From a virus (Duplodnaviria; Heunggongvirae; Uroviricota; Caudoviricetes), in the IMG/VR virus record IMGVR_UViG_2734482785_000012, positions 1 through 19,162 of that record: a stretch of DNA of 19,162 bases; one strand, given 5' to 3'. Both the position numbers and the translations under genes were made by a program. Positions within the stretch are counted from its first letter, which is position 1. Every line of letters begins with the position of its first letter. Below the pieces are notes generated by a model, which saw nothing but the letters and a program-made list of their open reading frames with translations, did not search any database and was not told where the DNA came from. This document shows positions 539-19,162 of this stretch, one piece after another.

Positions 539-571
539 AAACCTTCTGTTATTTTTTTACCATAAACTTCC

Positions 572-597
572 GGGGCGTTTTTACGCCCCTCTTTTTA
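572..597 (+). terminator. Rho-independent terminator downstream of the porin gene
   Basis: GC stem ggggcg / cgcccc (572-577 / 584-589) with a T-rich loop, followed by tcttttta. Confidence 0.5.
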
Positions 598-621
598 TTC
601 AACTTTGTTAGCTAACGTTAG

Positions 622-1247: not shown

Positions 1248-1258
1248 TGTCTGGTTGT

Positions 1259-3525: not shown

Positions 3526-3535
3526 CGCTGTCACC

Positions 3536-4682: not shown

Positions 4683-4873
4683 GGACGCACCTCCGCCGTA
4701 GTTACGTATTTAACCGGGCTACCTTTCATTGAGATGGTTTCACACATCTCTGCCGCTTTGCGTTCCGCCGTTTTTCTGGATTTATAGCGGCGGTGCCAGA
4801 CAGATGTATCTGTGCGAACTGATACATCGTTTCTGTATTCCGTTGTGGAAATAATAATTTCGTAACTAATCAT
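4679..4873 (-). CDS. Hypothetical small protein (64 aa)
   Basis: ATG at 4873..4871 preceded by GGGAGG, with near-identical start context to the next gene (tcATGgacgcRcctcc). The track began at an upstream ATG at 4888 that lacks an SD. Confidence 0.4.
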   Translation of the reverse strand: MISYEIIISTTEYRNDVSVRTDTSVWHRRYKSRKTAERKAAEMCETISMKGSPVKYVTTAEVRP

Positions 4874-5232
4874 GGACGCGCCTCCCATTGATTACGGCGG
4901 AAAGCGGTATGACTGAGGCTGTTTTCTGCCTCATGGAATGCTTCAATGCAGCTCTCGTAGTACCGCATTGTGCGCAGACTTAACCCAAGCTGAAGCATCA
5001 TCAGGCCATCAAGGGTGATGTAATAACCACGCAGAGAATCACCATAGATGTGATAAGTGCACGGTATGAAATTGCGGGTAAAAAACTCGCGCGAGCAGTT
5101 CAGATACTCGATTTTGTCGACGATGTTCTGGTGCATGCGCTTAAAGTGGCAGGCAACATGCAGGGAGAAAATAACAGCTTTGCAGTTGACGACTTCGATT
5201 TTGAGGAATGGGGAAGTTGGGACTGTAGCCAT
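4870..5232 (-). CDS. Hypothetical protein (121 aa from the ATG at 5232; the same frame stays open to an ATG at 5532, giving 220 aa)
   Basis: ATG at 5232..5230 is preceded by GGAGG and the codon usage looks coding (TTC, ATC, AAC, GAA). The N-terminal extension 5233-5532 is GC-rich with rare codons, and its start lacks an SD, so the longer model is uncertain. Confidence 0.4.
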   Translation of the reverse strand: MATVPTSPFLKIEVVNCKAVIFSLHVACHFKRMHQNIVDKIEYLNCSREFFTRNFIPCTYHIYGDSLRGYYITLDGLMMLQLGLSLRTMRYYESCIEAFHEAENSLSHTAFRRNQWEARP

Positions 5233-5556
5233 GATGGCAGCCTCCGTATGCAATGGATAACTTCCACCACCGGAGGTTCCAAGCTCGCTGGTGGCGGACT
5301 GAACAGGGTTGGAACGACCGGCGCATACGGAAACCGGCGAGCCTTTCGGCTCCCCTGCCCAGCCCACCATAATTCTGGCGTGCGTGAGCGCGGACGATAA
5401 AAAAGACGCTGGCGCGTCGTATATCGCCGTATGCAATTCCGAGGTTCCAATCCCGGCACCCGCTTTATAAGGTGCGGAGACAGTGTAGCGTCCCGAAATT
5501 GCAGAATCAATATTTAGGCTTGAAACATTCATATGCTTACTGGTATTTTTACTAAC

Positions 5557-5647
5557 GCAAATGTTCTTGGATGTTACTGGCTTACTTCTTTTGTGAAGTT
5601 GCCTTTACTAACGTTGAGCGAGCCGGGTCACTCCCCGGCTTTTTTTC
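5557..5647 (+). ncRNA. Putative short antisense RNA (lambda oop-like arrangement) ending at a plus-strand intrinsic terminator
   Basis: Plus-strand hairpin agccggg-tcactc-cccggct (5621-5640) followed by tttttt (5641-5646); no plus-strand gene ends here. Candidate promoter ttgaaa (5520-5525), 18-bp spacer, tatttt (5544-5549). Predicted RNA of about 90 nt, antisense to the Rha 3' end and the intergenic region. Confidence 0.3.
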
Positions 5648-6395
5648 ACCGCTGCCAACCAATAACCTGAAATAACCCCATTTTCGGGTGATACCAGCGA
5701 GTCCCTCGCGGTTCTACTTCCTCCATAACCCGATAAAAAGCAGCCATAAACGGTTCCACAGCAACAATTGCGCGACGTGACAACAATCCGTCCGGCGTCA
5801 TGAACTCATGTGTGTCTGTAGGAATTTGATAGGCGTTCACCAGATTGCGGCATTTATCATCTGACAAACCGGTTTTCGCTTTCAGTTGGCGATATCCGGC
5901 ATAGCCCTCACGAATGGTGCCCTTTTTGATTTGCTCAACTGTTTCGGCAACGTGGCTGACTTTTTCTTCCACCTGAGTGATCCGTTTCTGCTGACGAACA
6001 GCTTCAAGAGCCATCGCAGCAACCATTTCGATTTCGCTCATTGGTTTACGGATCTGTTCTTCCAGTTCGCGCCAGCGATCTACCAGGCGAGCAGTGAATT
6101 CAGGACAGAGCTGTGCGACGACAATGATGCTGTCGCGCTTACCTTGTTCTCCTTCAAACAGGTAATGCTCATATTGAACTTTAAAACCTAAGTTATTGAT
6201 TCTTTCGGAAACCTCAATTTGAGGAGACCGGACAACGCCACCTTTGGCTAATGTTTCAATAGTGCGTTTCACATTGTCATGACGTTTACCCACCAGCTCT
6301 GCAATTTCAACGCTGGTCATGGATACTTTGCCGTTAAAAATTGCGGTGTTCACTACCATCTCCTTACGGATAAATTCTTTTAAAATTCCGCACAT
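5646..6395 (-). CDS. Phage regulatory protein, Rha family (N-terminal Rha domain plus C-terminal domain of unknown function)
   Basis: Translation contains the Rha-type motif VEIAELVGKRHDNVKRTIETL. True start may be an internal GTG or ATG near 6353-6359, which is preceded by AAGGAG; the ATG at 6395 lacks an SD. Confidence 0.65.
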   Translation of the reverse strand: MCGILKEFIRKEMVVNTAIFNGKVSMTSVEIAELVGKRHDNVKRTIETLAKGGVVRSPQIEVSERINNLGFKVQYEHYLFEGEQGKRDSIIVVAQLCPEFTARLVDRWRELEEQIRKPMSEIEMVAAMALEAVRQQKRITQVEEKVSHVAETVEQIKKGTIREGYAGYRQLKAKTGLSDDKCRNLVNAYQIPTDTHEFMTPDGLLSRRAIVAVEPFMAAFYRVMEEVEPRGTRWYHPKMGLFQVIGWQR

Positions 6396-6472
6396 TCGTA
6401 CTTGTTGGTGTCGAACCTTTCTTCAGTTATCCTTTTGATCCCTATAAACAAAAGAACCAAAGGAGGTTCGAC

Positions 6473-6940
6473 ATGACTTTAAAATCAGTTCACAAGCTGC
6501 TAAAAGAGCATCTTTATACTCTGTATTCGGTTTTGCCTGCGTCCACGAAAGCAATTGAACTTCGAAATCGAACTAGTTGTCGCGCTATTGCTTTAACTTT
6601 TCTTTACCAAGCAATCATGGATTACAAACGCAACCATGCACTGCTAGGCTTATCTTCCCGAGAAACAATCATTCACATGCTTTACGAGGATGCAAAACTT
6701 ACAATTACTGACTTGGAACAAATTCAGCTTTCGCTTGTACTGAAAATTCTTGCTCCCCGTTTTGCGCGAATAGAAGCCAGTGTTTCTCCCGATTTTTCTG
6801 CAATGGTTCAAGACATGACTCAATGGCTTGAAGACAACTCCGAATGGATTTCGAGGTCTCATGAAGCAACTTCAGATCTTCCTGAATTAAAATGGTCAGA
6901 TCTTCCGAACGAGTTGTTTCCACTAACTCTAGGTAAGTAA
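6473..6940 (+). CDS. Hypothetical protein (155 aa)
   Basis: ATG at 6473 preceded by a near-perfect SD, AAAGGAGGT, 7 nt upstream. On the opposite strand to the surrounding early-right operon. Its 3' 236 bp overlap the convergent ORF 6705..7124. Confidence 0.5.
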   Translation: MTLKSVHKLLKEHLYTLYSVLPASTKAIELRNRTSCRAIALTFLYQAIMDYKRNHALLGLSSRETIIHMLYEDAKLTITDLEQIQLSLVLKILAPRFARIEASVSPDFSAMVQDMTQWLEDNSEWISRSHEATSDLPELKWSDLPNELFPLTLGK

Positions 6941-7124
6941 TTTTTTTCGACATATCGTCAAGTACATCTCGTAAACCGTCAGCTAAGGAAGGCAGACGGT
7001 TTACGGCATACCGTAAAGGTCCACCAGAATCCATCTCTTCAGCCGCTTCCGCTAACTCCTTGAGGTAAAGATTTATTTGACGATCAGTCATTCCAGTCGC
7101 ACTAATTTTGATTTTGTTATCCAT
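6705..7124 (-). CDS. Hypothetical protein (139 aa) immediately downstream of cro (cII/YdaT position)
   Basis: ATG at 7124..7122 preceded by GGGAGG. C-terminal part overlaps the plus-strand ORF 6473..6940, so the true 3' end is uncertain. Confidence 0.45.
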   Translation of the reverse strand: MDNKIKISATGMTDRQINLYLKELAEAAEEMDSGGPLRYAVNRLPSLADGLRDVLDDMSKKITYLELVETTRSEDLTILIQEDLKLLHETSKSIRSCLQAIESCLEPLQKNREKHWLLFAQNGEQEFSVQAKAEFVPSQ

Positions 7125-7160
7125 ATTTCCTCCCGCAACCTGCTAAAACAAATCCGTTCA

Positions 7161-7406
7161 TCACTTCTCATCCTCTATATGCGCTAAGCTTGGGTGTGGG
7201 AAAAGTTCTGGTAGATCTGGACGAAATTCATACGCCTGGATCTTTCCGTCGACAGCTGCAACCAATAACGGCACAAATTCGGGTGAAATTTTGTTCTTGC
7301 AGTTAAGCCAATCACAGACTGTTGATTGAGCCTTTCCGCATCGCTTGGCTAAGGCTTGTTGGCTCCCAAGAATCTCAATGGCTTTCTCTATAGCTTTATG
7401 TTTCAT
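7161..7406 (-). CDS. Cro-like HTH regulator (YdaS/Cro family)
   Basis: 81-aa product from the ATG at 7406..7404, preceded by AGGAG. HTH segment LGSQQALAKRCGKAQSTVCDWLN. Divergent from the CI-like gene. The track's longer model starts at 7478. Confidence 0.65.
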   Translation of the reverse strand: MKHKAIEKAIEILGSQQALAKRCGKAQSTVCDWLNCKNKISPEFVPLLVAAVDGKIQAYEFRPDLPELFPHPSLAHIEDEK

Positions 7407-7525
7407 AATCGCATCTCCTATTGACGACATAATATCAATAGGTAATTCGATATTCAACGTTAAACCTAGAAGTTTCATCGGAAAGCCGATAAACTGCCCA
7501 ATATAGAGAGGAGAGGAAGATCACA
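7407..7525. promoter_or_regulatory. Divergent immunity-region promoter/operator (OR-like) between the cro-like and CI-like genes
   Basis: Palindrome cctattga-N10-tcaatagg at 7417-7442. Candidate minus-strand PR: -35 ttgaat (7457..7452), 17-bp spacer, -10 tattat (7434..7429), overlapped by the palindrome. Second palindrome atcgg-aaag-ccgat near 7477-7490. The motif AATAGGTAA recurs at the promoter at 8287-8315. Confidence 0.5.
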
Positions 7526-8218
7526 ATGACATTTTCAGAACGACTTGATTTAGCTATGCGCAACGCAAAATTTACGCAAGGCAGGCTAGCCAAAGAAGTA
7601 GGTATGGCCCAGTCAAGCGTCAATCAATTACTTAACAAAGCCAACGGCTCTAGGAAAACAGTTGAAATAGCAAAAGTTTTGGGCGTTAACCCGGAATGGC
7701 TCGCATCTGGTGTCGGCCCAATGGAAATCGAGACCTCTGCAGACTCACACCAAATACGTAACATTTCAGAAGACAGAGTTACTGATTCGTATGTCGTGGA
7801 TGTTTTAGACATCAGATACAGTTGCGGACCTGGTAGTTATAACTCTGATTTTCCAGACATTGTCAGATCTATAGCGATAGAACCAGGATACGCATCAAGA
7901 GTTTTTGGCGGCAGACCAGCATCAGCAATCAAAGCAATAAACGCCCACGGCGACAGCATGAAAGGCACAATAAACCCTGAGGACTTGGTGTTTGTTGACG
8001 TATCAGTTCGCTCATTTAATGGCGATGGTATATACGCTTTTACATACTCTGGAACATCGCACATCAAAAGGCTTCAAAAAATCAAAGATACCCTAACAGT
8101 GATCTCAGACAATCCAGCTTACAAAGATTGGGCTATCGAACAAGATGACTTCGAGCAACTTCACATTGACGGAAAAGTAATCGTAAGTTGGCCTATGACG
8201 CTACACCGTTTCGCATAA
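7526..8218 (+). CDS. cI: CI-like prophage repressor (N-terminal HTH, C-terminal LexA/S24 peptidase-like autocleavage domain)
   Basis: 230-aa ORF with SD gagaggagagg upstream. HTH segment QGRLAKEVGMAQSSVNQLLN. C-terminal Ser/Lys dyad motifs GDSM and KRL. Confidence 0.85.
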   Translation: MTFSERLDLAMRNAKFTQGRLAKEVGMAQSSVNQLLNKANGSRKTVEIAKVLGVNPEWLASGVGPMEIETSADSHQIRNISEDRVTDSYVVDVLDIRYSCGPGSYNSDFPDIVRSIAIEPGYASRVFGGRPASAIKAINAHGDSMKGTINPEDLVFVDVSVRSFNGDGIYAFTYSGTSHIKRLQKIKDTLTVISDNPAYKDWAIEQDDFEQLHIDGKVIVSWPMTLHRFA

Positions 8219-8240
8219 GCGATAATTATTTAACACCCCG

Positions 8241-8265
8241 CCCACTCCACGAGTGGGTTTTTTTT
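8241..8265 (+). terminator. Rho-independent terminator after the CI-like gene (possibly bidirectional)
   Basis: Stem cccactc / gagtggg with loop cac, followed by tttttttt (8258-8265) and flanked by an A-run on the other side (8266-8274). Confidence 0.65.
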
Positions 8266-8286
8266 GAAAAAAAATCGACAAACCGA

Positions 8287-8315
8287 TTGACACCACAAAT
8301 AGGTAAACCTATTAT
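8287..8315 (+). promoter_or_regulatory. Strong sigma70-type promoter with embedded palindromic operator (PL/OL-like)
   Basis: -35 TTGACA (8287-8292), 17-bp spacer, -10 TATTAT (8310-8315). The spacer and -10 contain the palindrome AATAGGT-AA-ACCTATT (8298-8313). Confidence 0.6.
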
Positions 8316-8364
8316 CATGACATAAGTATCGAACTCACCAAAACAATTATAGAGGATGAGGAAA

Positions 8365-8775
8365 ATGTCATCGTATATGGGGTTACCAACAAATCAACAC
8401 GATGTTCTTGAGAATATTCAACTCTTAGTAGGGGCTGGAGCACTACTGTATAGCAGCAATAACCCAGAGTTAGTTGAACTTGCCAGCTCCATCCTAGCTG
8501 TAACTCAAAAATATAGCCTCGCTGCGTCGCGTTCATGTAAACAAAATTTAGCTATTAATTCACGGAATCGGATTCGTATCCAACGCGAAGCCTGCGGCTT
8601 AACAACCGCCGAACTCGCCAGGCTGCTCGATCTCGATGAAGAAATCATCATCCAGTGGGAGAGCGGAGAGTATGAACCAACTATCAGTATGCTTATCCCG
8701 CTGGCAAATGTTCTTGGTTGCGACCCGATGTGGCTGTTAACCGGTAAACCAACAGCTGAGGATACTTGCGCATGA
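8365..8775 (+). CDS. Helix-turn-helix (XRE/Cro-C1-type) DNA-binding protein, first gene of the early-left transcript
   Basis: C-terminal HTH region GLTTAELARLLDLDEEIIIQWESGEYEPTISMLIPLANVLGCDPMWLLTG. ATG at 8365; the track started at 8356. Stop overlaps the next start (ATGA). Confidence 0.55.
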   Translation: MSSYMGLPTNQHDVLENIQLLVGAGALLYSSNNPELVELASSILAVTQKYSLAASRSCKQNLAINSRNRIRIQREACGLTTAELARLLDLDEEIIIQWESGEYEPTISMLIPLANVLGCDPMWLLTGKPTAEDTCA

Positions 8776-9137
8776 AAAAGTTCGAAAACATAACTGTTCT
8801 CCATGTTGATGAATTTGATTATACAAACCAGGAATTTCTCCCGGAGGTTATAAAAGCAATAGAAGTTGCCGATATAGTGTTTAGAGGAAAGAGAATTGTC
8901 AAAAACAGGCTCGCATGCACTTCAGGAGCAATGACAGAAACAACCTCACAACAAGATGATTATGAAGGCATTTGTCTGGAGCCTGATTCATTTGCGGTAA
9001 ATGTTTATCATTTATTGCATGCAACACAGGTATTACATATGTCCAGTAATCACGAGACAAAAACACTTGGCAGCGAAATTCTGAATTTTGCATGTGAATA
9101 TGCAAAAGCTGCTGCCGAAAAAGAATTAGCACAATAA
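8772..9137 (+). CDS. Hypothetical protein (121 aa), translationally coupled to the HTH gene
   Basis: ATG at 8772 overlaps the upstream TGA. GAGGA lies 9 nt upstream. No motif recognised. Confidence 0.5.
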   Translation: MKKFENITVLHVDEFDYTNQEFLPEVIKAIEVADIVFRGKRIVKNRLACTSGAMTETTSQQDDYEGICLEPDSFAVNVYHLLHATQVLHMSSNHETKTLGSEILNFACEYAKAAAEKELAQ

Positions 9138-9217
9138 CAACAAACATGCCCTGAACGTTTATTACGGTTTTATCGCCGGGGATTGTTACAACCTTTATTC
9201 ATAGAGGGAACTCAGTT

Positions 9218-9331
9218 ATGACTTTCCTGAAAAATAAGGCATCGTATAAAACTGCCTGCCTCATTGCACAACATGGAGATTCTTATCTTCATATAGCCAA
9301 CCTGTATTTGCGCAAAGCATATGGGAGATAA
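9218..9331 (+). CDS. Small ORF (37 aa)
   Basis: ATG at 9218 preceded by agaggg. Stop lies 4 nt before the next start. Too short to judge on composition. Confidence 0.3.
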   Translation: MTFLKNKASYKTACLIAQHGDSYLHIANLYLRKAYGR

Positions 9332-9335
9332 ATAA

Positions 9336-9524
9336 ATGGAAGAAAAACAACAGAACATAACACATGAAAAAGTAAGAGTGTTGCTAACCATTGAAAATGG
9401 GAAAGTAATTTACTCAAAACATCTGTTGGATAATGAATTCGTTGGTTGCATGGATACATTTCTGTGGATGGCAAAAAGAGCTGGCTACACGATTATTCCA
9501 CCAGCAAAGGAGCAAACATTATGA
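9336..9524 (+). CDS. Hypothetical small protein (62 aa)
   Basis: ATG preceded by GGGAGA. Stop overlaps the next start (ATGA at 9521-9524). Confidence 0.45.
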   Translation: MEEKQQNITHEKVRVLLTIENGKVIYSKHLLDNEFVGCMDTFLWMAKRAGYTIIPPAKEQTL

Positions 9525-10102
9525 ATCATTCAGAGTTCCGACCAGTGGTTACGCCACATGGCATAAAAATTGGCAATACAACCATTGATTATGTTGAGGC
9601 CGTACAGCGGCTTAATAATGGTGAATACGATTATCCAAATTCTCACGGTTTAAGAATTATGCAATGTATTGCTGAAGCCGATGATGCCGGATTACTGGGA
9701 CGATTTTCAGTCGATATGAAGGTTGCTCAATGGCGATGGCTGTATGTGACAACATTTATAAATGAAGAGGAAGACAAGAACGGCACTGTTGATATCCCTA
9801 ACGATAATGGAACTACAGCTCGCGCAGTTATTTATAAAGGGAAATATGGTTGTATGGGTATCTACCCAGGATCAATTCGAATTGCCCTGCAAAACCATGT
9901 CGAACGGGGATTTATTGAAAAATATGGCGAAGCTGAAGGCATGGGGCGAGTTCTGTTTCTCTATCAAAAAATGCTCATCGTAGATCCAGGCAATGGCTTC
10001 ATTACCTCTACTATGGGACGCGAAGGACTTGAACTCCTTCTGGATGAAATGATTCACGATCTGAATACTCATGGTATGCCAGAAGCGCCAGTGACACATT
10101 AA
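9521..10102 (+). CDS. Hypothetical protein (193 aa), AT-rich accessory gene
   Basis: ATG at 9521 preceded by AAGGAG (8-nt spacing). The track's longer model starts at 9446. No motif recognised. Confidence 0.55.
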   Translation: MNHSEFRPVVTPHGIKIGNTTIDYVEAVQRLNNGEYDYPNSHGLRIMQCIAEADDAGLLGRFSVDMKVAQWRWLYVTTFINEEEDKNGTVDIPNDNGTTARAVIYKGKYGCMGIYPGSIRIALQNHVERGFIEKYGEAEGMGRVLFLYQKMLIVDPGNGFITSTMGREGLELLLDEMIHDLNTHGMPEAPVTH

Positions 10103-10109
10103 ATATTAA

Positions 10110-10134
10110 GAAGAATATAATTCTTCCGTTTTTT
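10110..10134 (+). terminator. Rho-independent terminator
   Basis: Stem gaagaat / attcttc with loop ata, followed by cgtttttt. Confidence 0.6.
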
Positions 10135-10147
10135 ACTAACCGTTTAT

Positions 10148-10255
10148 ATGAAAAGCAACCGTGAATTAAGCAGAGTAAAACTGCTTTTAATCCTTGCCAC
10201 AGTACTGACACTAACAGAAATCATTATTCTCTTTATTGCGCTGTCAGTCAGTTAA
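10148..10255 (+). CDS. Small hydrophobic peptide (35 aa, single predicted transmembrane helix)
   Basis: Translation MKSNRELSRVKLLLILATVLTLTEIIILFIALSVS. No clear SD, and shorter than the ORF-track cutoff. Confidence 0.3.
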   Translation: MKSNRELSRVKLLLILATVLTLTEIIILFIALSVS

Positions 10256-10278
10256 AAATATCGGGATGCAACAAACCA

Positions 10279-10467
10279 ATGAGATTGTATTTCAGAATAG
10301 TAATTTTACTGGCAATTATCGCATGCATTTACGGACTACTCGTCCCGTTCCTTATATCCATGAAGGATACGGTAGCAGTCATTTCCGGTTTTGCACTGGC
10401 GTTTCTGACCCCGCCCTGCATTTATGCCATTTACAAGGGTCTTTCTTTCACTAAGGATAAAAGATGA
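10279..10467 (+). CDS. Small membrane protein (62 aa, two predicted transmembrane helices)
   Basis: Hydrophobic segments IVILLAIIACIYGLLVPFLI and VAVISGFALAFL. Stop overlaps the start of the SPFH gene (ATGA). Confidence 0.4.
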   Translation: MRLYFRIVILLAIIACIYGLLVPFLISMKDTVAVISGFALAFLTPPCIYAIYKGLSFTKDKR

Positions 10468-11291
10468 AAAAAGTTATTTTTGCTTTAGCCATTGTTCTTC
10501 CGACCATTGGCCTTGTCGGTTGCGATCGCGTTGAACCAGGTAATGTTGGCATTAAGGTAAATAAACTGGGCGACGACAAAGGCGTCGGTGAAGTGGTTGG
10601 CGTTGGCCGCTACTGGACCGGCTGGAATACTGAAGTTTACATCTTCCCGACCTTCAAACAAATGAAGACCTACGATGAACCGTTCAGTTTCCAGATGAGT
10701 GACGGTACAACCATCGGCTATCACATCGGCGTGGCCTACAAGGTTGATCCATCCAAAGTTACCACGGTGTTTCAGACTTACCGCAAAGGCGTGGATGACA
10801 TAACCGATACCGACCTGCGTCAGAAGATCGCCGACGCACTCAACCGACTGGCCAGCAAAATGACCACCGACAAATTTATCGACGGCGGGAAGTCTGAACT
10901 ACTGGATGCAGCTCTTAAAGACATTCAGGAGGAAATGACCCCCATCGGTATTCAGGTAATGAGCCTCTCATATGTGGGTAAGCCGGAGTACCCGTCAACC
11001 GTTATCGACAGCATTAATGCCAAAGTCACGGCGAACCAGAAAACCCTGCAACGCGAACAGGAAGTAAAACAGCGCGAAGCGGAAGCCAACATGTTGCGCG
11101 CGGAAGCTGCCGGACAGGCAGATGCAATTCGCACAAAAGCCCAGGCCGAAGCCGATGCTATTCGTTTACGCGGTGAAGCTCTGCGCCAGAACCCCGGAGT
11201 TATGGAACTGGAAGCCATCAATAAATGGAACGGCATACTGCCGCAATACATGACCAGCGGTGCTAATACACCATTTATCCAGGTTAAATAA
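10464..11291 (+). CDS. SPFH/band-7 (prohibitin/stomatin-like) domain lipoprotein
   Basis: Signal peptide with lipobox LVGC (MKKVIFALAIVLPTIGLVGC). Central SPFH-like domain and a C-terminal Ala/Glu/Gln-rich coiled coil (QREQEVKQREAEANMLRAEAAGQADAIRTKAQAEADAIRLRGEA). SD AAGGA upstream. Confidence 0.75.
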   Translation: MKKVIFALAIVLPTIGLVGCDRVEPGNVGIKVNKLGDDKGVGEVVGVGRYWTGWNTEVYIFPTFKQMKTYDEPFSFQMSDGTTIGYHIGVAYKVDPSKVTTVFQTYRKGVDDITDTDLRQKIADALNRLASKMTTDKFIDGGKSELLDAALKDIQEEMTPIGIQVMSLSYVGKPEYPSTVIDSINAKVTANQKTLQREQEVKQREAEANMLRAEAAGQADAIRTKAQAEADAIRLRGEALRQNPGVMELEAINKWNGILPQYMTSGANTPFIQVK

Positions 11292-11331
11292 CTTATACGC
11301 CCGGCAGGGCGCCGGGCTAAGGAAAGAACAG

Positions 11332-11703
11332 ATGAACACCCAGAATACTCAACAGCAAATAATGAACTATGACCCAAATCTGACGTCGTGCGGACGCATG
11401 GCAAAACAAACCGTTCGATTAACTTTCGGACTATGGGAATACCGCGAAACATTCGAAGTTACTGTCGGTGGCAATCTGACCGGACTGGATGTTATCAGTT
11501 GCGCTATTGAAAGCCTGTACGCAACGCTGCCTTATGAAGAAGTCGAGGATGAGCGCACAGGGGAAACAGATATCATGGCCACCATTAATATTGGCGAACT
11601 GATATGTCAGGATGAAGACCTGTCTGGAGAACTCTGGCTTGCCGGGATGCTTATCTCAGCAGAAATTATCAGTATTGAACCCGCTACAAACATACGGCTC
11701 TGA
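11332..11703 (+). CDS. Hypothetical protein (123 aa)
   Basis: ATG at 11332 preceded by aaggaaag. The track's longer model starts at 11260. Preceded by the GC stem-loop gcccggc-agggc-gccgggc (11299-11317). Confidence 0.5.
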   Translation: MNTQNTQQQIMNYDPNLTSCGRMAKQTVRLTFGLWEYRETFEVTVGGNLTGLDVISCAIESLYATLPYEEVEDERTGETDIMATINIGELICQDEDLSGELWLAGMLISAEIISIEPATNIRL

Positions 11704-11734
11704 AGTTCTCATTATTCAGAGAGCAGGAGAAAAA

Positions 11735-11977
11735 ATGTTCGCTTTGATTAATCAAGGACAACTGTATACCGACAGTGCAGGTTACCCGGTAAAAATTATT
11801 CGCTGCATAAATAACACTGTGTTGTACAGAAGAATGGATGGGCGAACACAGTCGGTAAAACTAAACGATTTTAATGAATTGTTTGAACGGCTCGATCACC
11901 AGGAATACCGACAAATTCTGGCAGAAACAGAACAGGAAACTCATCTGAAGAAATTACGAGCCATGCAAAGGAAGTAA
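11735..11977 (+). CDS. Hypothetical protein (80 aa)
   Basis: ATG at 11735 preceded by gcaggag. The track's longer model starts at 11612. Confidence 0.5.
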   Translation: MFALINQGQLYTDSAGYPVKIIRCINNTVLYRRMDGRTQSVKLNDFNELFERLDHQEYRQILAETEQETHLKKLRAMQRK

Positions 11978-11980
11978 AGA

Positions 11981-12127
11981 ATGAATAAAGCGTTTGAGCT
12001 ATGGGTACGCCAGCGTTACGGCAATCGCTATGACCTGACGCGAGATGTTGACGGTTTCTACTGCCGTGAAATTGTGAAACGAATGTTTGAAGTGTGGTGC
12101 CACTGCCGTGGACTGAATGTTGTGTGA
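11981..12127 (+). CDS. Small ORF (48 aa, Cys/Trp-containing)
   Basis: ATG at 11981 preceded by aggaag, 3 nt after the previous stop. Translation MNKAFELWVRQRYGNRYDLTRDVDGFYCREIVKRMFEVWCHCRGLNVV. Confidence 0.35.
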   Translation: MNKAFELWVRQRYGNRYDLTRDVDGFYCREIVKRMFEVWCHCRGLNVV

Positions 12128-12135
12128 GGTGAACT

Positions 12136-12345
12136 GTGGGGCTGGATTGCGTACCTATATCAACCTACTGCCGCAACGCGGGAGAAACGGTTGATGCCGT
12201 TAACAAACGGATACAAAGAGGAATATGGAAAGAAGGGGTACATGTATTAAAAGTCGACGGGGTTAAAGAACGTTGGGTCGACTTAATGGAGATTACAAAA
12301 TGGGCAAGAAAGAACAAGGATCATTATCTCTCCCCAGAGGAGTAA
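12136..12345 (+). CDS. xis: Excisionase-like DNA-binding protein (Xis position)
   Basis: 69-aa ORF with GTG start preceded by GAGGTG. Winged-helix-like pattern (ETVDAVNKRIQRGIW...VKERWVDLMEITKW). 3' end overlaps the integrase start by 46 nt, as in xis-int pairs. Confidence 0.55.
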   Translation: MGLDCVPISTYCRNAGETVDAVNKRIQRGIWKEGVHVLKVDGVKERWVDLMEITKWARKNKDHYLSPEE

Positions 12346-13472
12346 CTATTCGGCAACATAAAACTGGTAGCACTCTGGTTATCACTTTTACATATAAAGG
12401 GGTTCTGTGTCGGGAGCCCCTCTCCAGAATGGAAGTAAACGCGCGCGGTGTGAAGTACGCCGAGCGTCTGCTGGGAGAAATAAAAAATCAGATTATCGAT
12501 GGTACCTTCGAATATGCAAAATACTTCCCCAACTCCCAAAAGCTGAAGTTGTTCGGGGGAGTGAAAAAAAACAAAAATATAAAATCTTACCTGGATGAAT
12601 ACCTGATTATCTGCCAGAACCGTAACCTGTCACCATCGACAATTAGAGGTTATGAAAAATGCCTGTCGGCGCTGTCAGCATTGCATAAATTTCATGTATC
12701 AGAACTGACACCTGCAGTACTAAAAAACTGGATCGCCAGCAGAAAAACAAAACTGAAAACGATCCGCAATAATCTTTCGTTTCTGCGCAGCGCCATAGAT
12801 GAGGCGGTGACCGATGGTTTGTTAACAATAAATCCTGTCACGCTAGTCAGCGCCAGCCGATATCACGTATTAGACAACACACCAGGCAGTGATGATTACG
12901 AGGTCGATCCTTTTACGCCAGCGGAGACAGCAGCAATCTATGACGCCTGTCATTACCCGGAATGGCGAAATCTATTTCGCTTCGCCTTTAATACCGGGCT
13001 GCGCAGCTCGGAATTGTGCGCATTGCGCTGGACAGATATAGACTTCATCGGCAACACAGCGCATGTCCAGACTGCAAGTGTAGTCGGGGTAATCAAAAGC
13101 ACCAAAACAAAAGCCGGCACTCGCAAAGTACAACTGAACAGCGAAGCGCTGGCAGCTCTTCAGGCACAAAAGCCCTACACGGCGCTAAAAAGCGACTTTA
13201 TATTCAGCGATCCAAAAACTCGCGCCCCTTGGGCAAACGCGGACGCGATCCGAAAAAAAGCCTGGGTGCCGACCCTTAAAAAGGCTGGTGTACGCTATCG
13301 CAATCCGTACCAGACACGCCATACGTTCGCCACTCGGCACATTAGCCAGGGCGTTAACCTGTTCTGGCTTGCTGGTCAGATGGGGCATAAAGGACCGGAA
13401 ATGCTGTTCAGACATTACGGCTCTTACCTTGCAGAATACGATGGAAAAACGGCGATTTCTGCAGCCCCGTAA
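12300..13472 (+). CDS. int: Prophage tyrosine integrase (site-specific recombinase)
   Basis: Catalytic-domain motifs (TGLRSSELCALRW; HTFATRHISQGVNLFWLAGQMGHKGPEMLFRHYGSY with the R..H-x-x-R..Y signature). ATG at 12300; the track used an upstream TTG at 12273. Lies next to the attachment core. Confidence 0.85.
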   Translation: MGKKEQGSLSLPRGVTIRQHKTGSTLVITFTYKGVLCREPLSRMEVNARGVKYAERLLGEIKNQIIDGTFEYAKYFPNSQKLKLFGGVKKNKNIKSYLDEYLIICQNRNLSPSTIRGYEKCLSALSALHKFHVSELTPAVLKNWIASRKTKLKTIRNNLSFLRSAIDEAVTDGLLTINPVTLVSASRYHVLDNTPGSDDYEVDPFTPAETAAIYDACHYPEWRNLFRFAFNTGLRSSELCALRWTDIDFIGNTAHVQTASVVGVIKSTKTKAGTRKVQLNSEALAALQAQKPYTALKSDFIFSDPKTRAPWANADAIRKKAWVPTLKKAGVRYRNPYQTRHTFATRHISQGVNLFWLAGQMGHKGPEMLFRHYGSYLAEYDGKTAISAAP

Positions 13473-13604
13473 CGGCAAAATATTTCAAAATGTTGTACAG
13501 AATCAGGACGTTACAGGGACAGCAATATGTACGTAAAATGCACATAATTCCTTGTTTGAAAAAATAAATCGTTCATATTCAATAAATTGGATTAATCACG
13601 ATCA

Positions 13605-13631
13605 CGGGTTCAACTCCCGCCAGCTCCACCA
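13605..13631 (+). other. ssrA: Attachment-site core: 27 nt matching the 3' end of tmRNA (ssrA); a fragment, not a complete gene
   Basis: cgggttcaactcccgccagctccacca matches the 3' terminus of the E. coli tmRNA as I recall it. Sequence upstream of 13605 diverges from ssrA. Lies between the prophage int and the P4-type integrase. Confidence 0.65.
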
Positions 13632-13796
13632 CTTTTTAGTTGTTTGAAGTTCAATGAAGTCTACTAAGCCCACACAGCACAAGCTCTGCGGGCTTTTTTA
13701 CGTCTATTGTCGTCCAGTGAGAATTGCTGAGAACTACGAGTTATGGCACCCTGAATGGGACCCACTAAGAAGGGTCCAAAAACCGAGGGTCCCAAA

Positions 13797-15026
13797 ATGG
13801 CAAAAATCGCTAAGAAGCTCACTGACACTGAAATCAAAAGCACCAAGCCAGCCGATAAAGAAATCAACTTGTTTGACGGTGATGGTCTGATTCTACGAAT
13901 CGCTCCTTTGGCGAAAGGAGGCAAGAAAAATTGGTATTTCAGGTATGCAGTACCAGTGAGCAAGAAAAGAACCAAAATGAGCCTTGGGACATATCCTCAC
14001 CTTACCCTTGCAAGAGCCAGAGCCTTACGTGATGAATATCTCTCCTTTCTGGCAAATGGTGTTGATCCCCAAATCCATAACAACGATAAGGCGAAGGCAT
14101 TAAAGAGTGCTACTGAGCACACTCTCCAAGCCGTAGCGCGGAAATGGTTAGATGAGAAGGTAAAGACATCAGGTATCTCACAAGACCATGCAGCAGACAT
14201 CTGGCGCAGCTTAGAGAGAAATGTCTTTCCCGGTCTGGGTAATGTCCCTATCAATGAGATCCGACCTAAGCTCTTAAAACAACACCTTGATCCTATTGAG
14301 CAACGAGGCGTATTGGAAACTCTACGCCGTATCATTTCACGTCTGAATGAAATCTTCCGGTGGGCAGCTACTGAAGAACTTATTGAGTTCAACCCGGCTG
14401 ACAACCTTGGTCAAAGATTCAGTAAACCAAAAAAGCAAAATATGCCTGCCCTTCCCCCAAGCGAATTGCCAAGGTTTATGGAATCTTTGACGAATGCGTC
14501 AATCCGGTTGGAAACACGTATGCTAATTGAATGGCAATTGTTGACATGGGTTCGTCCGGGTGAAGCCGTTCGCGCAAGGTGGTCTGATATTGATACAACC
14601 AACAGCATTTGGAACATTCCTGCTGATTTCATGAAAATGAAAAAGCTTCACAAAGTTCCTTTGAGTAAAGAAGCTTTGCGCATCCTTGAATTAATGAAAT
14701 CAATAAGTGGGCATAGAGAATGGGTTTTCCCCAGCATAAAAGCGCCTCTTAATCATATGCATGAACAAACAGCCAACGCAGCTATCATCCGAATGGGGTT
14801 CGGAGGCGAGCTTGTAGCTCACGGTATGCGTTCTATTGCACGAACAGCGGCAGAGGAGTCTGGTAAATTCAGAGCTGAAGTTCTTGAGGCAGCGCTTGCC
14901 CACTCGAAAAAAGATGAAATTATCGCAGCATACAATCGTGCAGAATATCTGATAGAGCGACAGAGTTTGATGCAATGGTGGAGTGATTACGTTCAAGCTC
15001 AAAGATCAAATGCTCTGGTAGCCTAA
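13797..15026 (+). CDS. P4-type (IntA/CP4-57-like) tyrosine integrase
   Basis: N-terminus MAKIAKKLTDTEIKSTKPADKEINLFDGDGLILRIAP is typical of P4-family integrases. Catalytic region has R (VRPGEAVRARW), HGMRS and Y (AAYNRAEY). ATG at 13797; the track's longer model starts at 13755. Lies directly downstream of the tmRNA 3'-end core. Confidence 0.85.
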   Translation: MAKIAKKLTDTEIKSTKPADKEINLFDGDGLILRIAPLAKGGKKNWYFRYAVPVSKKRTKMSLGTYPHLTLARARALRDEYLSFLANGVDPQIHNNDKAKALKSATEHTLQAVARKWLDEKVKTSGISQDHAADIWRSLERNVFPGLGNVPINEIRPKLLKQHLDPIEQRGVLETLRRIISRLNEIFRWAATEELIEFNPADNLGQRFSKPKKQNMPALPPSELPRFMESLTNASIRLETRMLIEWQLLTWVRPGEAVRARWSDIDTTNSIWNIPADFMKMKKLHKVPLSKEALRILELMKSISGHREWVFPSIKAPLNHMHEQTANAAIIRMGFGGELVAHGMRSIARTAAEESGKFRAEVLEAALAHSKKDEIIAAYNRAEYLIERQSLMQWWSDYVQAQRSNALVA

Positions 15027-15064
15027 GTATCAGAATAGCTAATATAATCCTGAAGGTAAAGAAA

Positions 15065-15481
15065 ATGGAAACCCTATTCAAAGTTTTTGAAAAATTTAGT
15101 TCCAGACCACTTTTTTTTATTTTTTTCGGACTCTCACTTTGTGAATTTTTTCAGAAACAATCTGTTCTGATGAATCCATCAGCAGATAACATCGCGAAAT
15201 TATTCGCAGCCATGATATTAGTTGTTTTTTTTACTTGGGGATTTGAATGGCTAATCTTCAAGTTCAATGTAAACCTTGAACCTCATGATCAAGGCGATAT
15301 TGGACCAACAATTGGAACGGCTACTTTAGCTGTATACTTAGTTTATGCCTTTCACTTTCTCAGTGAAAATCCTGAAGCATTAAATTTAAAGTTATTAACT
15401 AACTCTGGCTTTATATACAGCACAACTCTATTATTATTCTCATTAGAATGCATGAAGCTTAGAAGACTTAAACAAAAATAA
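15065..15481 (+). CDS. Hypothetical integral membrane protein (138 aa, 3-4 predicted transmembrane helices)
   Basis: AT-rich. Hydrophobic segments PLFFIFFGLSL, LFAAMILVVFFTWGFEWLIF, TIGTATLAVYLVYAFHFL, FIYSTTLLLFSL. Convergent with the receiver-domain gene. Confidence 0.5.
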   Translation: METLFKVFEKFSSRPLFFIFFGLSLCEFFQKQSVLMNPSADNIAKLFAAMILVVFFTWGFEWLIFKFNVNLEPHDQGDIGPTIGTATLAVYLVYAFHFLSENPEALNLKLLTNSGFIYSTTLLLFSLECMKLRRLKQK

Positions 15482-15552
15482 ACAACATCATTGTGATGAT
15501 AAATATAAAATAGGCATGGCGAAAAAAAATCACCACGCCTAAAATATAATAA

Positions 15553-17301
15553 TTATGGTAGCATCATTGATACATAATCCACACCAATCCTTGAGCTATA
15601 CTGAGACGCTATAGCCTGATATCTTTCTGCATAACCAGTTCTCAGTTGAGATTTAAGTTTGAGTCGGACAGGAACATTTTGCACGTTGCCATCCATATTA
15701 CTTAAAAACACGGCAGAAATAATATTTTTTTCTTCGCCATCAACTGTTGTTCCATGATTCAACACCACCATATAATCAACAACAGGAAGCGTTTTATCCC
15801 CTTCGAAAATAGAGAGATATTTTCTTTGATTTTTATGCATTACATATATATATTTCGAATGTTCAGCAAATGGCAATGCTTTACTCTGACTGGCGTTAAA
15901 AAGCTCCAGAACTTTAATGAGCCTGTGCGGACTTAATCTTACATGGTGAGGGTCGTTACCCTGAGTAGGAACCAAATCACATGCCGCAGATACACATAAA
16001 TACCATTTGTTCGACTCTGTATCAAAGAAAATAGTGCCAGTAGAAATATGACCATCTTCAAAATTCTTTGAAGACAAATTCATATTTAAAGCATGATACA
16101 TTTCGTGATAAGTATCATTATTTGATGGCAGATCCATTTTTGAAGAGCAATATTGGAGCAATGCAGCAACTCCGCTGTTAGCGTATTCATTTGAATAGCT
16201 ATCAAAAACACTTTTGATAAATTCATCCAGCGTATTATTATTTTTAAGTCTTTGATAAAGCTCTTCTGATAAATTACCAAATACAAAGTCAATATTTCTA
16301 CATCTAATATCAGGCGAGTCTGATTTTAATATCTCATTTAACCACGCAGCTTGACCGTAATGATCGTTAGCCAAATGATTTACAAAAGATAAAGCCTCAG
16401 CTTCGATTGCATTCTGAATTTCAGATTTTATTAACTGATAATAAGATGGTTTCCATTCAATGAGAGAATCATTGAGAGTTTGCCAAATCCTATCTCCATC
16501 GTTTTCATGATCATCTTGAACCTTATGAAATAGGGAGACAAAGATATTACCACATTGAATCCATTTTACTCCGCTTTCATCACCCCGAATGACATTGCCA
16601 GATGTGTTGCTAGAAATAATTGCATTTCTAGACACAGCATATTCTGCAATCATTTTTGCAATGAAGTTTTTATCCTTTTGATCCTCCAACACAGCATCAT
16701 CATGTATTAATCTTTTAATTCTTCTACAAGGCTTACTGTCTTTAATATAGGCTATTGTTTCATCTCTTGTGAGAGCTTTATTACCATTATCATTTAAGTT
16801 CGGTAATACAACGTCTTCCCAATAACTTTGGACATCTTCATTATCGTAGTCAATGATCAAGCTGTTGATATCCAGAGCACCTTTGAGAGTCGATGATATC
16901 TGCATCCAAACCGTTTCTAAATTCTCTCTAGTATATATTACAATCATATTTAAATGATCGGAGTCTTTCAAATCTTGTAATAGTTTAAGTGTTTTATCAG
17001 GTGCATTATTATCAAGATGATAATCTACAATAATAAGATCTGATTTTCTAATCCGATCCACATCGAAATTAACAGAACCATTGTCAACATCACAAATCAT
17101 ATTTTTAGATTGAAAAAAGCTCTCAAGAGTAGCGGCTCGTTTAGATGAGTCAATTTTGTTGTAGTCTAAATCAACTTCGTTATTCAACGCCCTGATTGAT
17201 TCAGAATACGTCAGAAAATCGTCATCAATCATGACAACGGAACGAATTGCATTTTCGCAGAAAGTTTTCTGGACAAGAGAATTATAATTTGCCACTGTCA
17301 T
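15553..17301 (-). CDS. Receiver (REC) domain protein with large C-terminal domain of unknown function (about 430 aa)
   Basis: N-terminal REC signature in the correct order and spacing: VVMIDDD (acidic pocket), LIIVDYHL (phospho-acceptor Asp), MIVIYT (conserved Thr), TLKG (Lys). ATG at 17301..17299 preceded by GGAG, 1 nt after the kinase-like gene stop (TAA-T-ATG); the track's model starts at 17319. About 30% GC. Confidence 0.7.
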   Translation of the reverse strand: MTVANYNSLVQKTFCENAIRSVVMIDDDFLTYSESIRALNNEVDLDYNKIDSSKRAATLESFFQSKNMICDVDNGSVNFDVDRIRKSDLIIVDYHLDNNAPDKTLKLLQDLKDSDHLNMIVIYTRENLETVWMQISSTLKGALDINSLIIDYDNEDVQSYWEDVVLPNLNDNGNKALTRDETIAYIKDSKPCRRIKRLIHDDAVLEDQKDKNFIAKMIAEYAVSRNAIISSNTSGNVIRGDESGVKWIQCGNIFVSLFHKVQDDHENDGDRIWQTLNDSLIEWKPSYYQLIKSEIQNAIEAEALSFVNHLANDHYGQAAWLNEILKSDSPDIRCRNIDFVFGNLSEELYQRLKNNNTLDEFIKSVFDSYSNEYANSGVAALLQYCSSKMDLPSNNDTYHEMYHALNMNLSSKNFEDGHISTGTIFFDTESNKWYLCVSAACDLVPTQGNDPHHVRLSPHRLIKVLELFNASQSKALPFAEHSKYIYVMHKNQRKYLSIFEGDKTLPVVDYMVVLNHGTTVDGEEKNIISAVFLSNMDGNVQNVPVRLKLKSQLRTGYAERYQAIASQYSSRIGVDYVSMMLP

Positions 17302-17302
17302 A

Positions 17303-19021
17303 TTAGAACTCCACTCCATTGAACTGGATCACAAAATTAGCGCCATCTTTTATTAAATAGTTATCGCCTTCATCAGGTTCTGAATACCATATTTTATGAT
17401 GTGCAACAGCAAGGTTTTCTCGACATAGATACAGACCTACCCCATGTCCATTTGCTCTTTTGCTATAAAATAGTTCAAATAGTCGCGGGATATCATCGGT
17501 ATCAATTGCCGGACCAGAATTTGCTATGATAACCAAAGAATTCACAAAACCAATCTTTATGAGCCTATTATTTGACAGACTGACCCAATACATTGCATTG
17601 TTGATAATATTAGTAAAAACAGGATAGATCCTTGATGGTATATCTGTTATTGCGATTTGCTTAAACTCTTCACTAAATTCAATAGTTATTCGTTGCCGTT
17701 CGAAACGCTCCCCAAAGAACTTCAGGACATAATCCATGATATTTTTTCCAGTTATTCTCTGCCTGGATTGATAACCTGATATTTTCAAAGGTGATAAGAA
17801 ACGTATTTGTTGAGTAAGCGATCTGTGAGCATTTAACGCCAATGAAAAACCAGGGTGTTCTTTTACAGAAGTAGGAAGAGAGTTTAGTCCTCTGGTTACC
17901 ATAGAATCCATTTCTTCAAGTTCATGAGATATTATCTCAACACTAATACCTAACTGTGCAAGCGCGTTTAAACTTTTAGCTTTTTCTTCAAAATATGAGC
18001 GTTCTTCTTCAGATAATGAGAATGCTGAATCTAAGTTTATACCTTCAAATAATCTATCGAGACCTTTTATTATTGATTGATATTTGAAAGTTAGGGTATC
18101 AACTGACTCAACATATAAACTATCGAGCAAATTAAACACATTTTCAATTTGTGAATCATTATCTATTGAATCAACAACTGATATAGTTTTAGCATAATAA
18201 TCACTTCGATCAACCTTTATTTCATCGGCCCATTTTTTTAAAAGAGAATGTATCTTCTCCTCTATCGTGTTATTAAACTTAGTTAGTTTAGAATTAATAA
18301 TACCTTGATTTTTTTCAAGGTGATTTTTCGCTGACAATGAAGGCTCAAGTTTATTTAATTCAGAATCAAGTTTATTAATTGCTAACTTCATTTGTAGAAT
18401 ATACGCAGAGAACTCATTAAATTTATCTCTGTAGTCTCTATATTTCTCTTCATACATTCCAAGTTTTGGAGGTTTGATAGGCGTTTTAATTTCACTGCGC
18501 AACGCATCTAAGTTTGTAAGATCACTGTCTATAATTTTAAGATAGTTTAAATCTAACGAACCATCAGTTTTATCAAGCTTAGTTTTCAGCCTTTTAACAG
18601 CCTCCAAGGAAGCATCAAGAACTGGTGTCTGATTCTTCAAAGCTTCTGAAAAACTTTTTTGTGTTGATTTTCGAGCTTGTTGTTGAGCAGATTTTCTTAA
18701 CTCTTTTTCACGCTTAACTTGTTCTAAAAGCTCTTTACGGTCATCAGAACGTGAACCAAAAAATCTATCAGCAAGTTCAGTTAACAAATTAGATATAATA
18801 GTTTTCAGTTCTCTTGCAGCCTGGTTTCTTATGAATCCCTCTCTCCCCGACTTATCTTTCAGCTCTTTATTACTGGATTGAGTAATTCCAATATAACCAA
18901 AAATCCTTCTATTAGACCAATAATATCGCCCTGCATTCCATGAACGTCTTTCTTCTATCTGGAAGAAATCATTATCTACTCGACCATAAGGTAATACTCT
19001 CAAGCTATCCCTAAAAATCAT
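17303..19021 (-). CDS. Cytoplasmic histidine-kinase-like protein (HisKA H-box plus GHKL/HATPase_c core) with coiled-coil-rich N-terminal region; reading frame open upstream to 19147
   Basis: H-box ISHELEEMDSM, N-box FTNIINNAMYW, G1 ANSGPAIDTDD, G2 GHGVGLYLC. No hydrophobic transmembrane segments. The frame continues without a stop or start codon from 19021 up to 19147 (…FDLKAKKYAGL before the Met), so the annotated Met may be internal. Confidence 0.7.
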   Translation of the reverse strand: MIFRDSLRVLPYGRVDNDFFQIEERRSWNAGRYYWSNRRIFGYIGITQSSNKELKDKSGREGFIRNQAARELKTIISNLLTELADRFFGSRSDDRKELLEQVKREKELRKSAQQQARKSTQKSFSEALKNQTPVLDASLEAVKRLKTKLDKTDGSLDLNYLKIIDSDLTNLDALRSEIKTPIKPPKLGMYEEKYRDYRDKFNEFSAYILQMKLAINKLDSELNKLEPSLSAKNHLEKNQGIINSKLTKFNNTIEEKIHSLLKKWADEIKVDRSDYYAKTISVVDSIDNDSQIENVFNLLDSLYVESVDTLTFKYQSIIKGLDRLFEGINLDSAFSLSEEERSYFEEKAKSLNALAQLGISVEIISHELEEMDSMVTRGLNSLPTSVKEHPGFSLALNAHRSLTQQIRFLSPLKISGYQSRQRITGKNIMDYVLKFFGERFERQRITIEFSEEFKQIAITDIPSRIYPVFTNIINNAMYWVSLSNNRLIKIGFVNSLVIIANSGPAIDTDDIPRLFELFYSKRANGHGVGLYLCRENLAVAHHKIWYSEPDEGDNYLIKDGANFVIQFNGVEF

Positions 19022-19142
19022 TAGTCCTGCATACTTTTTGGCCTTAAGATCAAAGTGGGAATGTTCACGTTCAGTATGTGATGTATTTTGTGAAAGGAAT
19101 TCAAACGTTCCTATCTGAAGCTCAAATGGGCCGACCCCTGCG

Positions 19143-19162
19143 TGATCCTACCCACGTAATAT
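19143..19162. mobile_element. Probable terminal inverted repeat of an IS3-family insertion sequence (element continues beyond the window)
   Basis: tgatcctacccacgtaatat has the TGATC-TACCCA terminus typical of IS3-type inverted repeats. The first in-frame stop upstream of the kinase-like ORF (cta at 19148-19150) lies inside it. Confidence 0.45.

Follow-up and report, generated by a model that had tools for sequence, protein, structure and literature searches.

Insertion elements at ssrA and the locus under study

The 3' end of ssrA, the gene of transfer-messenger RNA (tmRNA), is a listed insertion site of Shiga toxin (Stx) phages and of non-Stx phages (PMC3491183, PMC8112680). The tmRNA gene is also the most enriched target of genomic islands, and tandem arrays of such islands have been catalogued, in which every member must have both an integrase and a target-gene fragment (tDNA) of its own (PMC4383910). 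One resident of this site is CP4-57 of Escherichia coli K-12, the excision of which deletes T357 of ssrA and thereby disables the tmRNA (PMC10107115). The present analysis concerns a 19,162-nt stretch of viral DNA (record IMGVR_UViG_2734482785_000012 of IMG/VR; hereafter the window, in whose positions, 1-19,162, all coordinates are given unless another sequence is named) and in particular its region 12136-15026, for which an initial annotation had proposed tandem occupation of ssrA by a lambdoid prophage and an islet with a P4-type integrase. This region is very probably an attR junction, the right-hand end of a phiP27-like lambdoid prophage lodged in the 3' end of ssrA, standing before a P4-type integrase islet. 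It is a tandem insertion of the ordinary, well-known kind that illustrates a textbook mechanism and reveals no new one.

Several features are shared with the tandem elements described at ssrA, namely a tyrosine-integrase element in the 3' end of the gene, restoration of the gene, a co-oriented displaced 3' fragment that marks the far boundary and a second integrase element that directly adjoins. The difference is that only the prophage here has an integrase plus a fragment of its own. The lambdoid prophages found at ssrA in pathogenic E. coli agree with the window prophage in target gene and in kind of phage, the early region of the window prophage being phiP27-like. The islet resembles CP4-57 (intA, K-12) in integrase architecture, in its position after ssrA, in a homologous terminator hairpin and in a three-copy repeat before the integrase gene. 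It differs in its size of about 6 kb versus about 22 kb, in its cargo, in the repeated word (GGGTCC versus AGGCCCA in K-12) and in being separated from ssrA by a prophage.

Layout of the attR junction and its core

The order on the + strand is xis, int, a 132-nt spacer, the 27-nt ssrA copy, a further 165 nt and the P4-type int, and the features of the junction are as follows.

12136-12345, + strand: xis, excisionase of 69 aa with a GTG start (phrog_2917, E=1.5e-40; annotated at the same position in relatives)
12300-13472, + strand: prophage tyrosine integrase, 390 aa (Pfam Arm-DNA-bind_2, 2.8e-19, and Phage_integrase, 1.8e-19)
13473-13604, + strand: P arm of the attachment site, attR side (colinear with the P arm of the phage LMessi attP)
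13605-13631, + strand: core, the displaced copy of the ssrA 3' end (exact match to the last 27 nt of K-12 ssrA)
13632-13796, + strand: left end of the islet (directly 3' of ssrA in prophage-free strains, with a 100% identical junction)
13797-15026, + strand: P4-type tyrosine integrase, 409 aa, intact (Arm-DNA-bind_3, Phage_int_M and Phage_integrase)

When compared with the sequence itself and with the list of open reading frames (ORFs), the coordinates of the initial annotation were accurate to a few bases. The xis-int pair had been placed about 130 bp before the ssrA copy, where 132 nt were measured, and the P4-family integrase about 165 bp after it, which agrees with the 165 nt found and with an ATG at 13797 (about 13796 had been implied).

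The block CGGGTTCAACTCCCGCCAGCTCCACCA at 13605-13631 equals the terminal 27 nt of K-12 ssrA at 27/27 positions, so that its proposed identity as the ssrA 3' end holds. It has a single match in the window with up to 3 mismatches allowed, matched in 0 of 200 shuffles, and has a chance expectation of about 2e-12 for an exact 27-mer match. From known tmRNA structure, the 27-mer presumably spans 4 nt of the T-stem, the T-loop, the returning T-stem, the acceptor 3' strand and ACCA. Both ARAGORN and Rfam were negative for tmRNA in the window, which is uninformative because the window holds a 27-nt fragment only.

The core had been described as a shared junction. The 27-mer is indeed shared, yet in the window's background the identity between core and attL runs on to 13636 (CTTTT), because the phage arm and the islet both start with CTTTT after CCA, and attL and attR therefore have 32 nt in common. 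In other backgrounds the shared attL/attR block is 27 nt, so the crossover must fall inside those 27 nt; it would probably lie inside the 7-nt T-loop, between the CGGG and CCCG stem halves.

Integration of the prophage into ssrA

The initial annotation had named prophage-free strains and the distal prophage end as the places where integration into ssrA would become visible, and both, the latter as seen in relatives, bear the proposal out. A 600-nt synthetic junction, composed of the last 200 nt of K-12 ssrA and window positions 13632-14031, was used as an empty-site query against 5426 complete E. coli genomes. The empty site, with ssrA joined directly to 13632 onward, is present at 100% identity over all 600 nt in many genomes, and 959 of the 5426 cover at least 80% of the query. 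In the prophage-free strain 503025 the gene order is smpB, ssrA, the same P4-type integrase, the 138-aa gene, the two-component-like pair, IS3, a ygaQ remnant and glaH.

Among the complete genomes searched, the best match to the whole window reaches 96.7% identity over 87%. Over 12100-15100 the closest genome is NZ_CP141863 (98.5% identity), in which an intact 363-nt ssrA lies beside smpB at the far end of a prophage of about 46 kb. The same arrangement is found in NZ_CP027550, with an intact ssrA beside smpB at the far end of a prophage of about 41 kb, and in both relatives the full ssrA is co-oriented with the displaced 27-nt copy. In the free phage LMessi, int, a 132-nt arm, CACGGGTTCAACTCCCGCCAGCTCCACCACTTTT and a further arm follow one another in one contiguous attP. 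When the window spacer and core are joined to the sequence that follows ssrA in NZ_CP141863, the product aligns colinearly with the LMessi attP with single-base gaps only. Matches to prophage genomes that have another downstream neighbour stop exactly at 13631; in ETEC4085, for example, the core is followed by ypjA-side sequence, the same that follows the right-end fragment of CP4-57 in K-12. The phage P arm together with the core occurs in 28 of the 5426 genomes. Of the features by which Islander-type elements are recognised, a tyrosine integrase of its own, a displaced co-oriented fragment, an empty site and a contiguous attP are present for the prophage, and the intact target gene at the other boundary is present in the relatives NZ_CP141863 and NZ_CP027550.

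The attP of the prophage would have had the layout int, P arm, core and P' arm, with the last 27 nt of ssrA as the core. Recombination between attP and ssrA would leave an intact ssrA followed by the P' arm at the far end (attL, containing ...GGACGCGGGTTCAACTCCCGCCAGCTCCACCACTTTTGA...), and would carry the displaced 27 nt to the near end, giving attR in the order xis-int, P arm and core. Everything to the right of 13631 would formerly have stood directly 3' of ssrA. Since the 27-mer is a perfect copy, precise excision should restore wild-type ssrA; the gene should thus stay intact, in contrast to the damage that CP4-57 excision causes.

Order of arrival and competing explanations

The prophage had further been proposed to have displaced an older ssrA-linked islet. 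That the islet was ssrA-linked is confirmed by its position directly 3' of ssrA in prophage-free strains, whereas its greater age is a probable reading of population counts. An islet directly 3' of a full ssrA is 34 times commoner than the phage module (959 versus 28 of 5426), the islet has the same decayed end with and without the prophage, and the phage module adjoins three different downstream contexts. Taken together, these data make the prophage most likely the later arrival.

Some observations weigh against the reading of the region as the attR of a prophage that arrived second. The 27-mer retains the 14-nt core used by P4-type elements (K-12 psaA), so the order of arrival is unreadable from the anatomy. 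The distal end of the window's own prophage lies beyond the window, and the distal ssrA was seen in relatives only. In addition, some relatives carry a frameshifted prophage int, which bears on the ability to excise.

The reverse order is very unlikely. In that scheme the prophage would have entered ssrA first, and the islet would later have used the displaced 27-nt attR fragment as a secondary attB. The 14-nt block CGCCAGCTCCACCA by which P4-type elements at ssrA are recognised (K-12 psaA; table in PMC10107115) does lie entirely within the 27-mer, and the 97% identity of the integrase module 13605-15657 in Klebsiella and Raoultella speaks for a family that is still mobile between genera; against this, the islet-ssrA junction, 100% identical to that of the window, is far commoner than the phage module, the same phage module is also found without the islet, and the right end of the islet has decayed alike with and without the prophage (IS3, neighbouring genes lost), which points to one old, fixed insertion.

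More improbable still is a composite element, in which the P4-type islet would be a satellite or passenger that moves together with the prophage. Hundreds of genomes carry the islet but no such prophage, and the prophage is also seen without the islet, even though the prophage integrase and the islet are adjacent and co-oriented in several genera and P4-type integrases are, as is well established, typical of phage satellites. Moreover, the LMessi attP ends with a P' arm and not with an islet, the scanned islet ORFs contain no primase, AlpA-like regulator or capsid-redirecting protein, and there is no distal repeat that would allow joint excision.

An origin of the 27-mer unrelated to integration, as a chance match or a relic of local ssrA duplication, has practically no likelihood: beyond the shortness of the match nothing favours it, and it is refuted by the chance expectation given above, by the presence of this block between homologous arms in the attP of the free phage LMessi, and by the empty-site junction, since deletion of the exact interval between the two copies restores a junction present in hundreds of genomes.

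Candidate integrase and IHF sites in the attachment-site arms

Two features stand out in the P arm.

13525-13543, + strand: tandem octamers, candidate arm-type integrase (Int) sites (from positional conservation)
13577-13589, + strand: site beside the core, ATTCAATAAATTG, resembling the consensus WATCAANNNNTTR of integration host factor (IHF)

The spacer between int and core, 132 nt in length, had been called AT-rich and has a GC content of 31% versus 43.5% for the window. The suggestion that it could hold arm-type Int sites gains support, by comparison only, from the octamers ATATGTAC (13525-13532) and AAATGCAC (13536-13543), which lie 11 bp apart. Counted from the CCA end, the two octamers occupy -106/-95 in the window, in LMessi and in the Superficieibacter, Erwinia and Trabulsiella loci, with diverged flanks. 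The P' arm, as present in attL and attP, contains further octamer copies, two direct and one inverted. The IHF-like site has one mismatch to the consensus in a by-eye reading, a resemblance only, and TCAAT(N5)TT occupies the same position in 5 of 6 aligned P arms. The octamers and the IHF-like site are probably sites of the intasome, the octamers presumably being bound by the integrase. The P' arm also carries a terminator hairpin, whose stem sequence differs between two phages while the hairpin is retained, and this hairpin may replace the ssrA terminator in lysogens.

A mechanistic parallel is the lambda intasome of attP, Int, Xis and IHF, in which the N-terminal domain of Int contacts repeated arm sites and IHF bends the arms. 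Common to both are a separate arm-binding domain of Int, the overlap of xis and int, AT-rich arms, short words repeated in both arms (two in P and three in P') and an IHF-like site by the core. The window Int differs in having Arm-DNA-bind_2 rather than the lambda-type arm domain, the window core lies inside an RNA gene, and the site assignments here are comparative.

A likeness to the P' arm is also seen outside phages. In island-free E. coli, the sequence 3' of ssrA (ATCATGATTGGACGG..., on the ypjA side; locus L007, 19066-19200; locus L089, 273-440, K-12 2777972 onward) resembles a diverged P' arm, with GGAC words, AAAAACAG and GACCAGACGGTGA followed by a terminator. This sequence might be what remains of an older member of the ssrA-phage family.

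A three-copy motif in front of the islet integrase

13757-13793, + strand: three-copy motif GGGACCC (inverted), GGGTCC and GGGTCCC, directly 5' of the islet int and over its Shine-Dalgarno sequence

An inverted repeat, gggaccc and gggtccc, had been reported at 13757-13795. Both words are present, but the second ends at 13793 and the two belong to a motif of three copies: GGGACCC at 13757-13763, GGGTCC at 13772-13777 and GGGTCCC at 13787-13793. Four copies of GGGTCC occur in the 19-kb window, and three of them fall inside one 36-bp stretch (13758-13763 inverted, 13772-13777 and 13787-13792). Among 38 distinct relatives, the motif columns are conserved at 0.98-1.00, compared with 0.73-0.84 for the intervening spacers. 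Other integrase lineages have a different repeated word instead, namely GAGGGAG, GGnTACT, GGTGC or TTGGTAYACG, and AGGCCCA in K-12. In the GAGGGAG, GGnTACT and GGTGC groups the copies, one inverted and two direct, occupy the positions of GGGTCC; the TTGGTAYACG group and K-12 have two direct copies followed by one inverted copy, located further upstream of int.

Repeated words that vary in step with the protein lineage are the signature of a specific protein-DNA contact, and the three copies are probably sites for the arm-binding domain of the islet integrase itself, as judged from these alignments. The third copy overlaps the ribosome-binding site, so binding would repress int. The GGGTCC triplet might thus act as an arm-type Int site or as an operator that confers autoregulation, as in phage P4, for which Int autoregulation was reported by Piazzolla 2006 according to the summary in PMC2951348. 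The likeness to P4, as far as that summary describes it, would lie in repeated candidate Int sites at the start of int, where binding would be repressive.

Just 5' of the motif, the block TTATGGCACCCT (13714-13756) is near-invariant across integrase lineages despite the change of the repeated word. It could be the -10/start region of the int promoter or a shared core-type site.

The 14-nt P4-type core is nested within the 27-nt phage core and is now present at both prophage ends. One might speculate that the islet integrase, intact and near-identical across genera, is not inert, and that it acts on the prophage junctions, helping or blocking excision or capturing P4-type elements at either copy, with the lineage-specific words serving as a code by which P4-type arm domains recognise their DNA sites. 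This scenario is unlikely.

The islet as a stranded remnant

In addition to the integrase, the islet contains the following features.

13666-13701, + strand: intrinsic terminator hairpin and T-run (terminator scan match at 13681-13695 plus the T-run)
15065-15481, + strand: islet gene of 138 aa, function unknown (phrog_6556, E=1e-70)
15553-19021, - strand: cargo, a two-component-like gene pair (Response_reg_2 at 15553-17319; HEF_HK/HATPase_c at 17303-19021)

The islet left end is homologous to the spacer between ssrA and intA of CP4-57, with the hairpin and T-run included, the former corresponding to the K-12 hairpin after ssrA. The centroid fold pairs 13666-13695, and the mean column conservation is 0.91 among the 38 relatives. 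The fold of 13632-13705 is no more stable than shuffles (z = -0.86), and the terminator call accordingly rests on form, T-run, conservation and K-12 homology and not on energy. This element is the ssrA terminator of islet-bearing strains, now located 3' of the phage int.

The start of the islet integrase at ATG 13797 is that annotated in RefSeq relatives, the mechanical ORF running from 13755. The protein scores 440.6 with NCBIfam PRK09692 (cutoff 434) and shares 48% identity with K-12 IntA along its full length. Its putative motif residues, read from the sequence, are R253, H342-x-x-R345, H369 and Y379. The 138-aa protein has no match in Pfam, NCBIfam or PADLOC. The cargo pair was assigned with Pfam (PF19192, 3.7e-31; PF19191, 1.2e-5, and PF02518, 1.8e-11), and the same genes stand 3' of the integrase in prophage-free strains. 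Pairs of the PF19192/PF19191 kind have been reported in association with restriction-modification and paraMORC systems (PMC8011034); PADLOC returned no convincing defence-system match for the islet cargo. In the closest genome, the receiver-domain gene carries a frameshift.

At its other end, the islet in E. coli terminates at IS3 and the ygaQ remnant, both with and without the prophage. A second ssrA fragment (14-mer, at most 2 mismatches, in the right context) was found neither in the window nor, in a prophage-free strain, within 10 kb 3' of ssrA; the only 2-mismatch matches to the ssrA end are unrelated and lie inside genes. The islet therefore lacks the right-end psaA fragment of CP4-57. 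No AlpA/Vis-like domain, and hence no counterpart of alpA, was found in the scanned ORFs of 15065-19021, among which small ORFs were not searched exhaustively. The absence of a distal ssrA fragment and the IS3 end indicate that the islet is a stranded remnant. As a former island with a P4-type int, it would supply the ssrA terminator, a promoter region with integrase-binding repeats, int and the two-component-like cargo, and it would have lost its right end and with it the ability to excise. The tandem occupation originally proposed is thus borne out with respect to the second integrase, whereas an ssrA fragment belonging to the islet is lacking, so that only half of the strict Islander definition of a tandem array applies.

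Recurrence of the tandem layout in other genera

A scan of species-representative genomes for relatives of the islet integrase yielded 80 loci, 32 of which were scanned with ARAGORN. In the closer relatives int starts 165-169 nt after the ssrA 3' end (176 nt in locus L053), and in a group with about 50% identity it starts 183-195 nt after it. Counted from CCA, the interval in the closer relatives stays at 165-167 nt throughout the Enterobacterales. An ssrA 3' end before int is missing from a few, mostly truncated loci. An intact tmRNA gene lies upstream of int in 27 of the 32 loci, which come from other species, as in prophage-free E. coli; its end lies about 166 nt before int in the closer relatives and about 184-194 nt before it in the group with about 50% identity. 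The trait of P4-type islands of having int directly 3' of an intact ssrA is therefore absent from the window, where a 27-nt fragment only is found, and this contrast with most relatives identifies the state of the window as derived.

The remaining 5 of the 32 loci have an ssrA fragment only upstream, and in 4 of them an integrase of the window-prophage family reads toward it. These four, from Photorhabdus, Superficieibacter, Erwinia and Trabulsiella (L015, L018, L064 and L085, at about 2100-3000 in each), show an ssrA fragment of 24-30 nt followed about 166-192 nt further on by a related P4-type int. The tandem layout therefore recurs across genera and is not peculiar to the strain of the window.

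Across genera, homology extends over core, spacer and int and breaks off at about 15014, in some cases at 15657, so the cargo is variable. The module of core, spacer, int and hypothetical gene at 13605-15657 has 97% DNA identity to sequences of Klebsiella oxytoca and Raoultella lignicola (L046 and L051, 2809-4857), the cargo beyond being different. The islet integrase module is still mobile from genus to genus, and its cargo can be exchanged. Two loci come from metagenome-assembled genomes (MAGs) of distant taxa: L009 (a Bacteroidales MAG) carries the E. coli islet at 99.96% DNA identity, and L027 (a Clostridiaceae MAG) has an integrase of 91% protein identity. These short contigs are most likely binning contamination.

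Exchange of the integration module among phages

1-12130, no strand assigned: phiP27-like early, immunity and replication region, partial (phiP27 homology; late genes beyond the window)

The window from 963 to 12130 shows 94.5% identity to the Stx2e phage phiP27 in 5 colinear pieces that cover 63% of the query, and the homology ends at 12130, six bases ahead of xis. Gene names in the early region of relatives include Q antiterminator, helicase, DnaC-like loader, LexA-family repressor and Rha. Xis has no Pfam or NCBIfam match. The prophage int overlaps xis by 46 nt, its mechanical ORF beginning with TTG at 12273, and the protein is 88% identical in amino acids to LMessi Int end to end, with the putative, pattern-based motif residues R235, Y337-x-x-R340, H363 and Y373. 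The xis-int-attP region resembles LMessi, phi467, PhiR12 and phiES15 at 79-84%, and the phiP27 module is not matched. The stop of phiP27 homology at 12130 together with the match of the module to other phages indicates an exchange of the integration module, a common event in lambdoid phages. The integration site of phiP27 itself is yecE; phiP27 and the window prophage are alike and colinear in the early region and differ in the integration module.

The identical xis-int-attR module occurs on an LT-II prophage (NZ_CP141863) and on an Stx2f/CdtI prophage (NZ_CP027550), so that one portable xis-int-attP module sends phiP27-like, LT-II and Stx2f/Cdt phages to ssrA. Prophage typing and the design of PCR assays of excision and occupancy can draw on this precise map of the prophage boundary, which includes attR, the core, putative Int and IHF sites and what was once the ssrA terminator. 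In the relatives, the stretches concerned are 11272-12417 of locus L002 (NZ_CP141863), for the prophage with LT-II enterotoxin A/B, and 6874-8973 and 32128-33363 of locus L008 (NZ_CP027550), for the one with Stx2f and type I cytolethal distending toxin (Cdt); there is no toxin gene inside the window.

In the immunity/antirepressor region of the window prophage, two RNAs assigned with Rfam lie adjacent on the - strand, a C4 antisense RNA at 5287-5374 (83 bits) and the Hfq-binding RNA isrK at 5399-5475 (59 bits). The pair points to antisense control of an ant gene in the manner of P1/P7 in this phage of the phiP27 kind.

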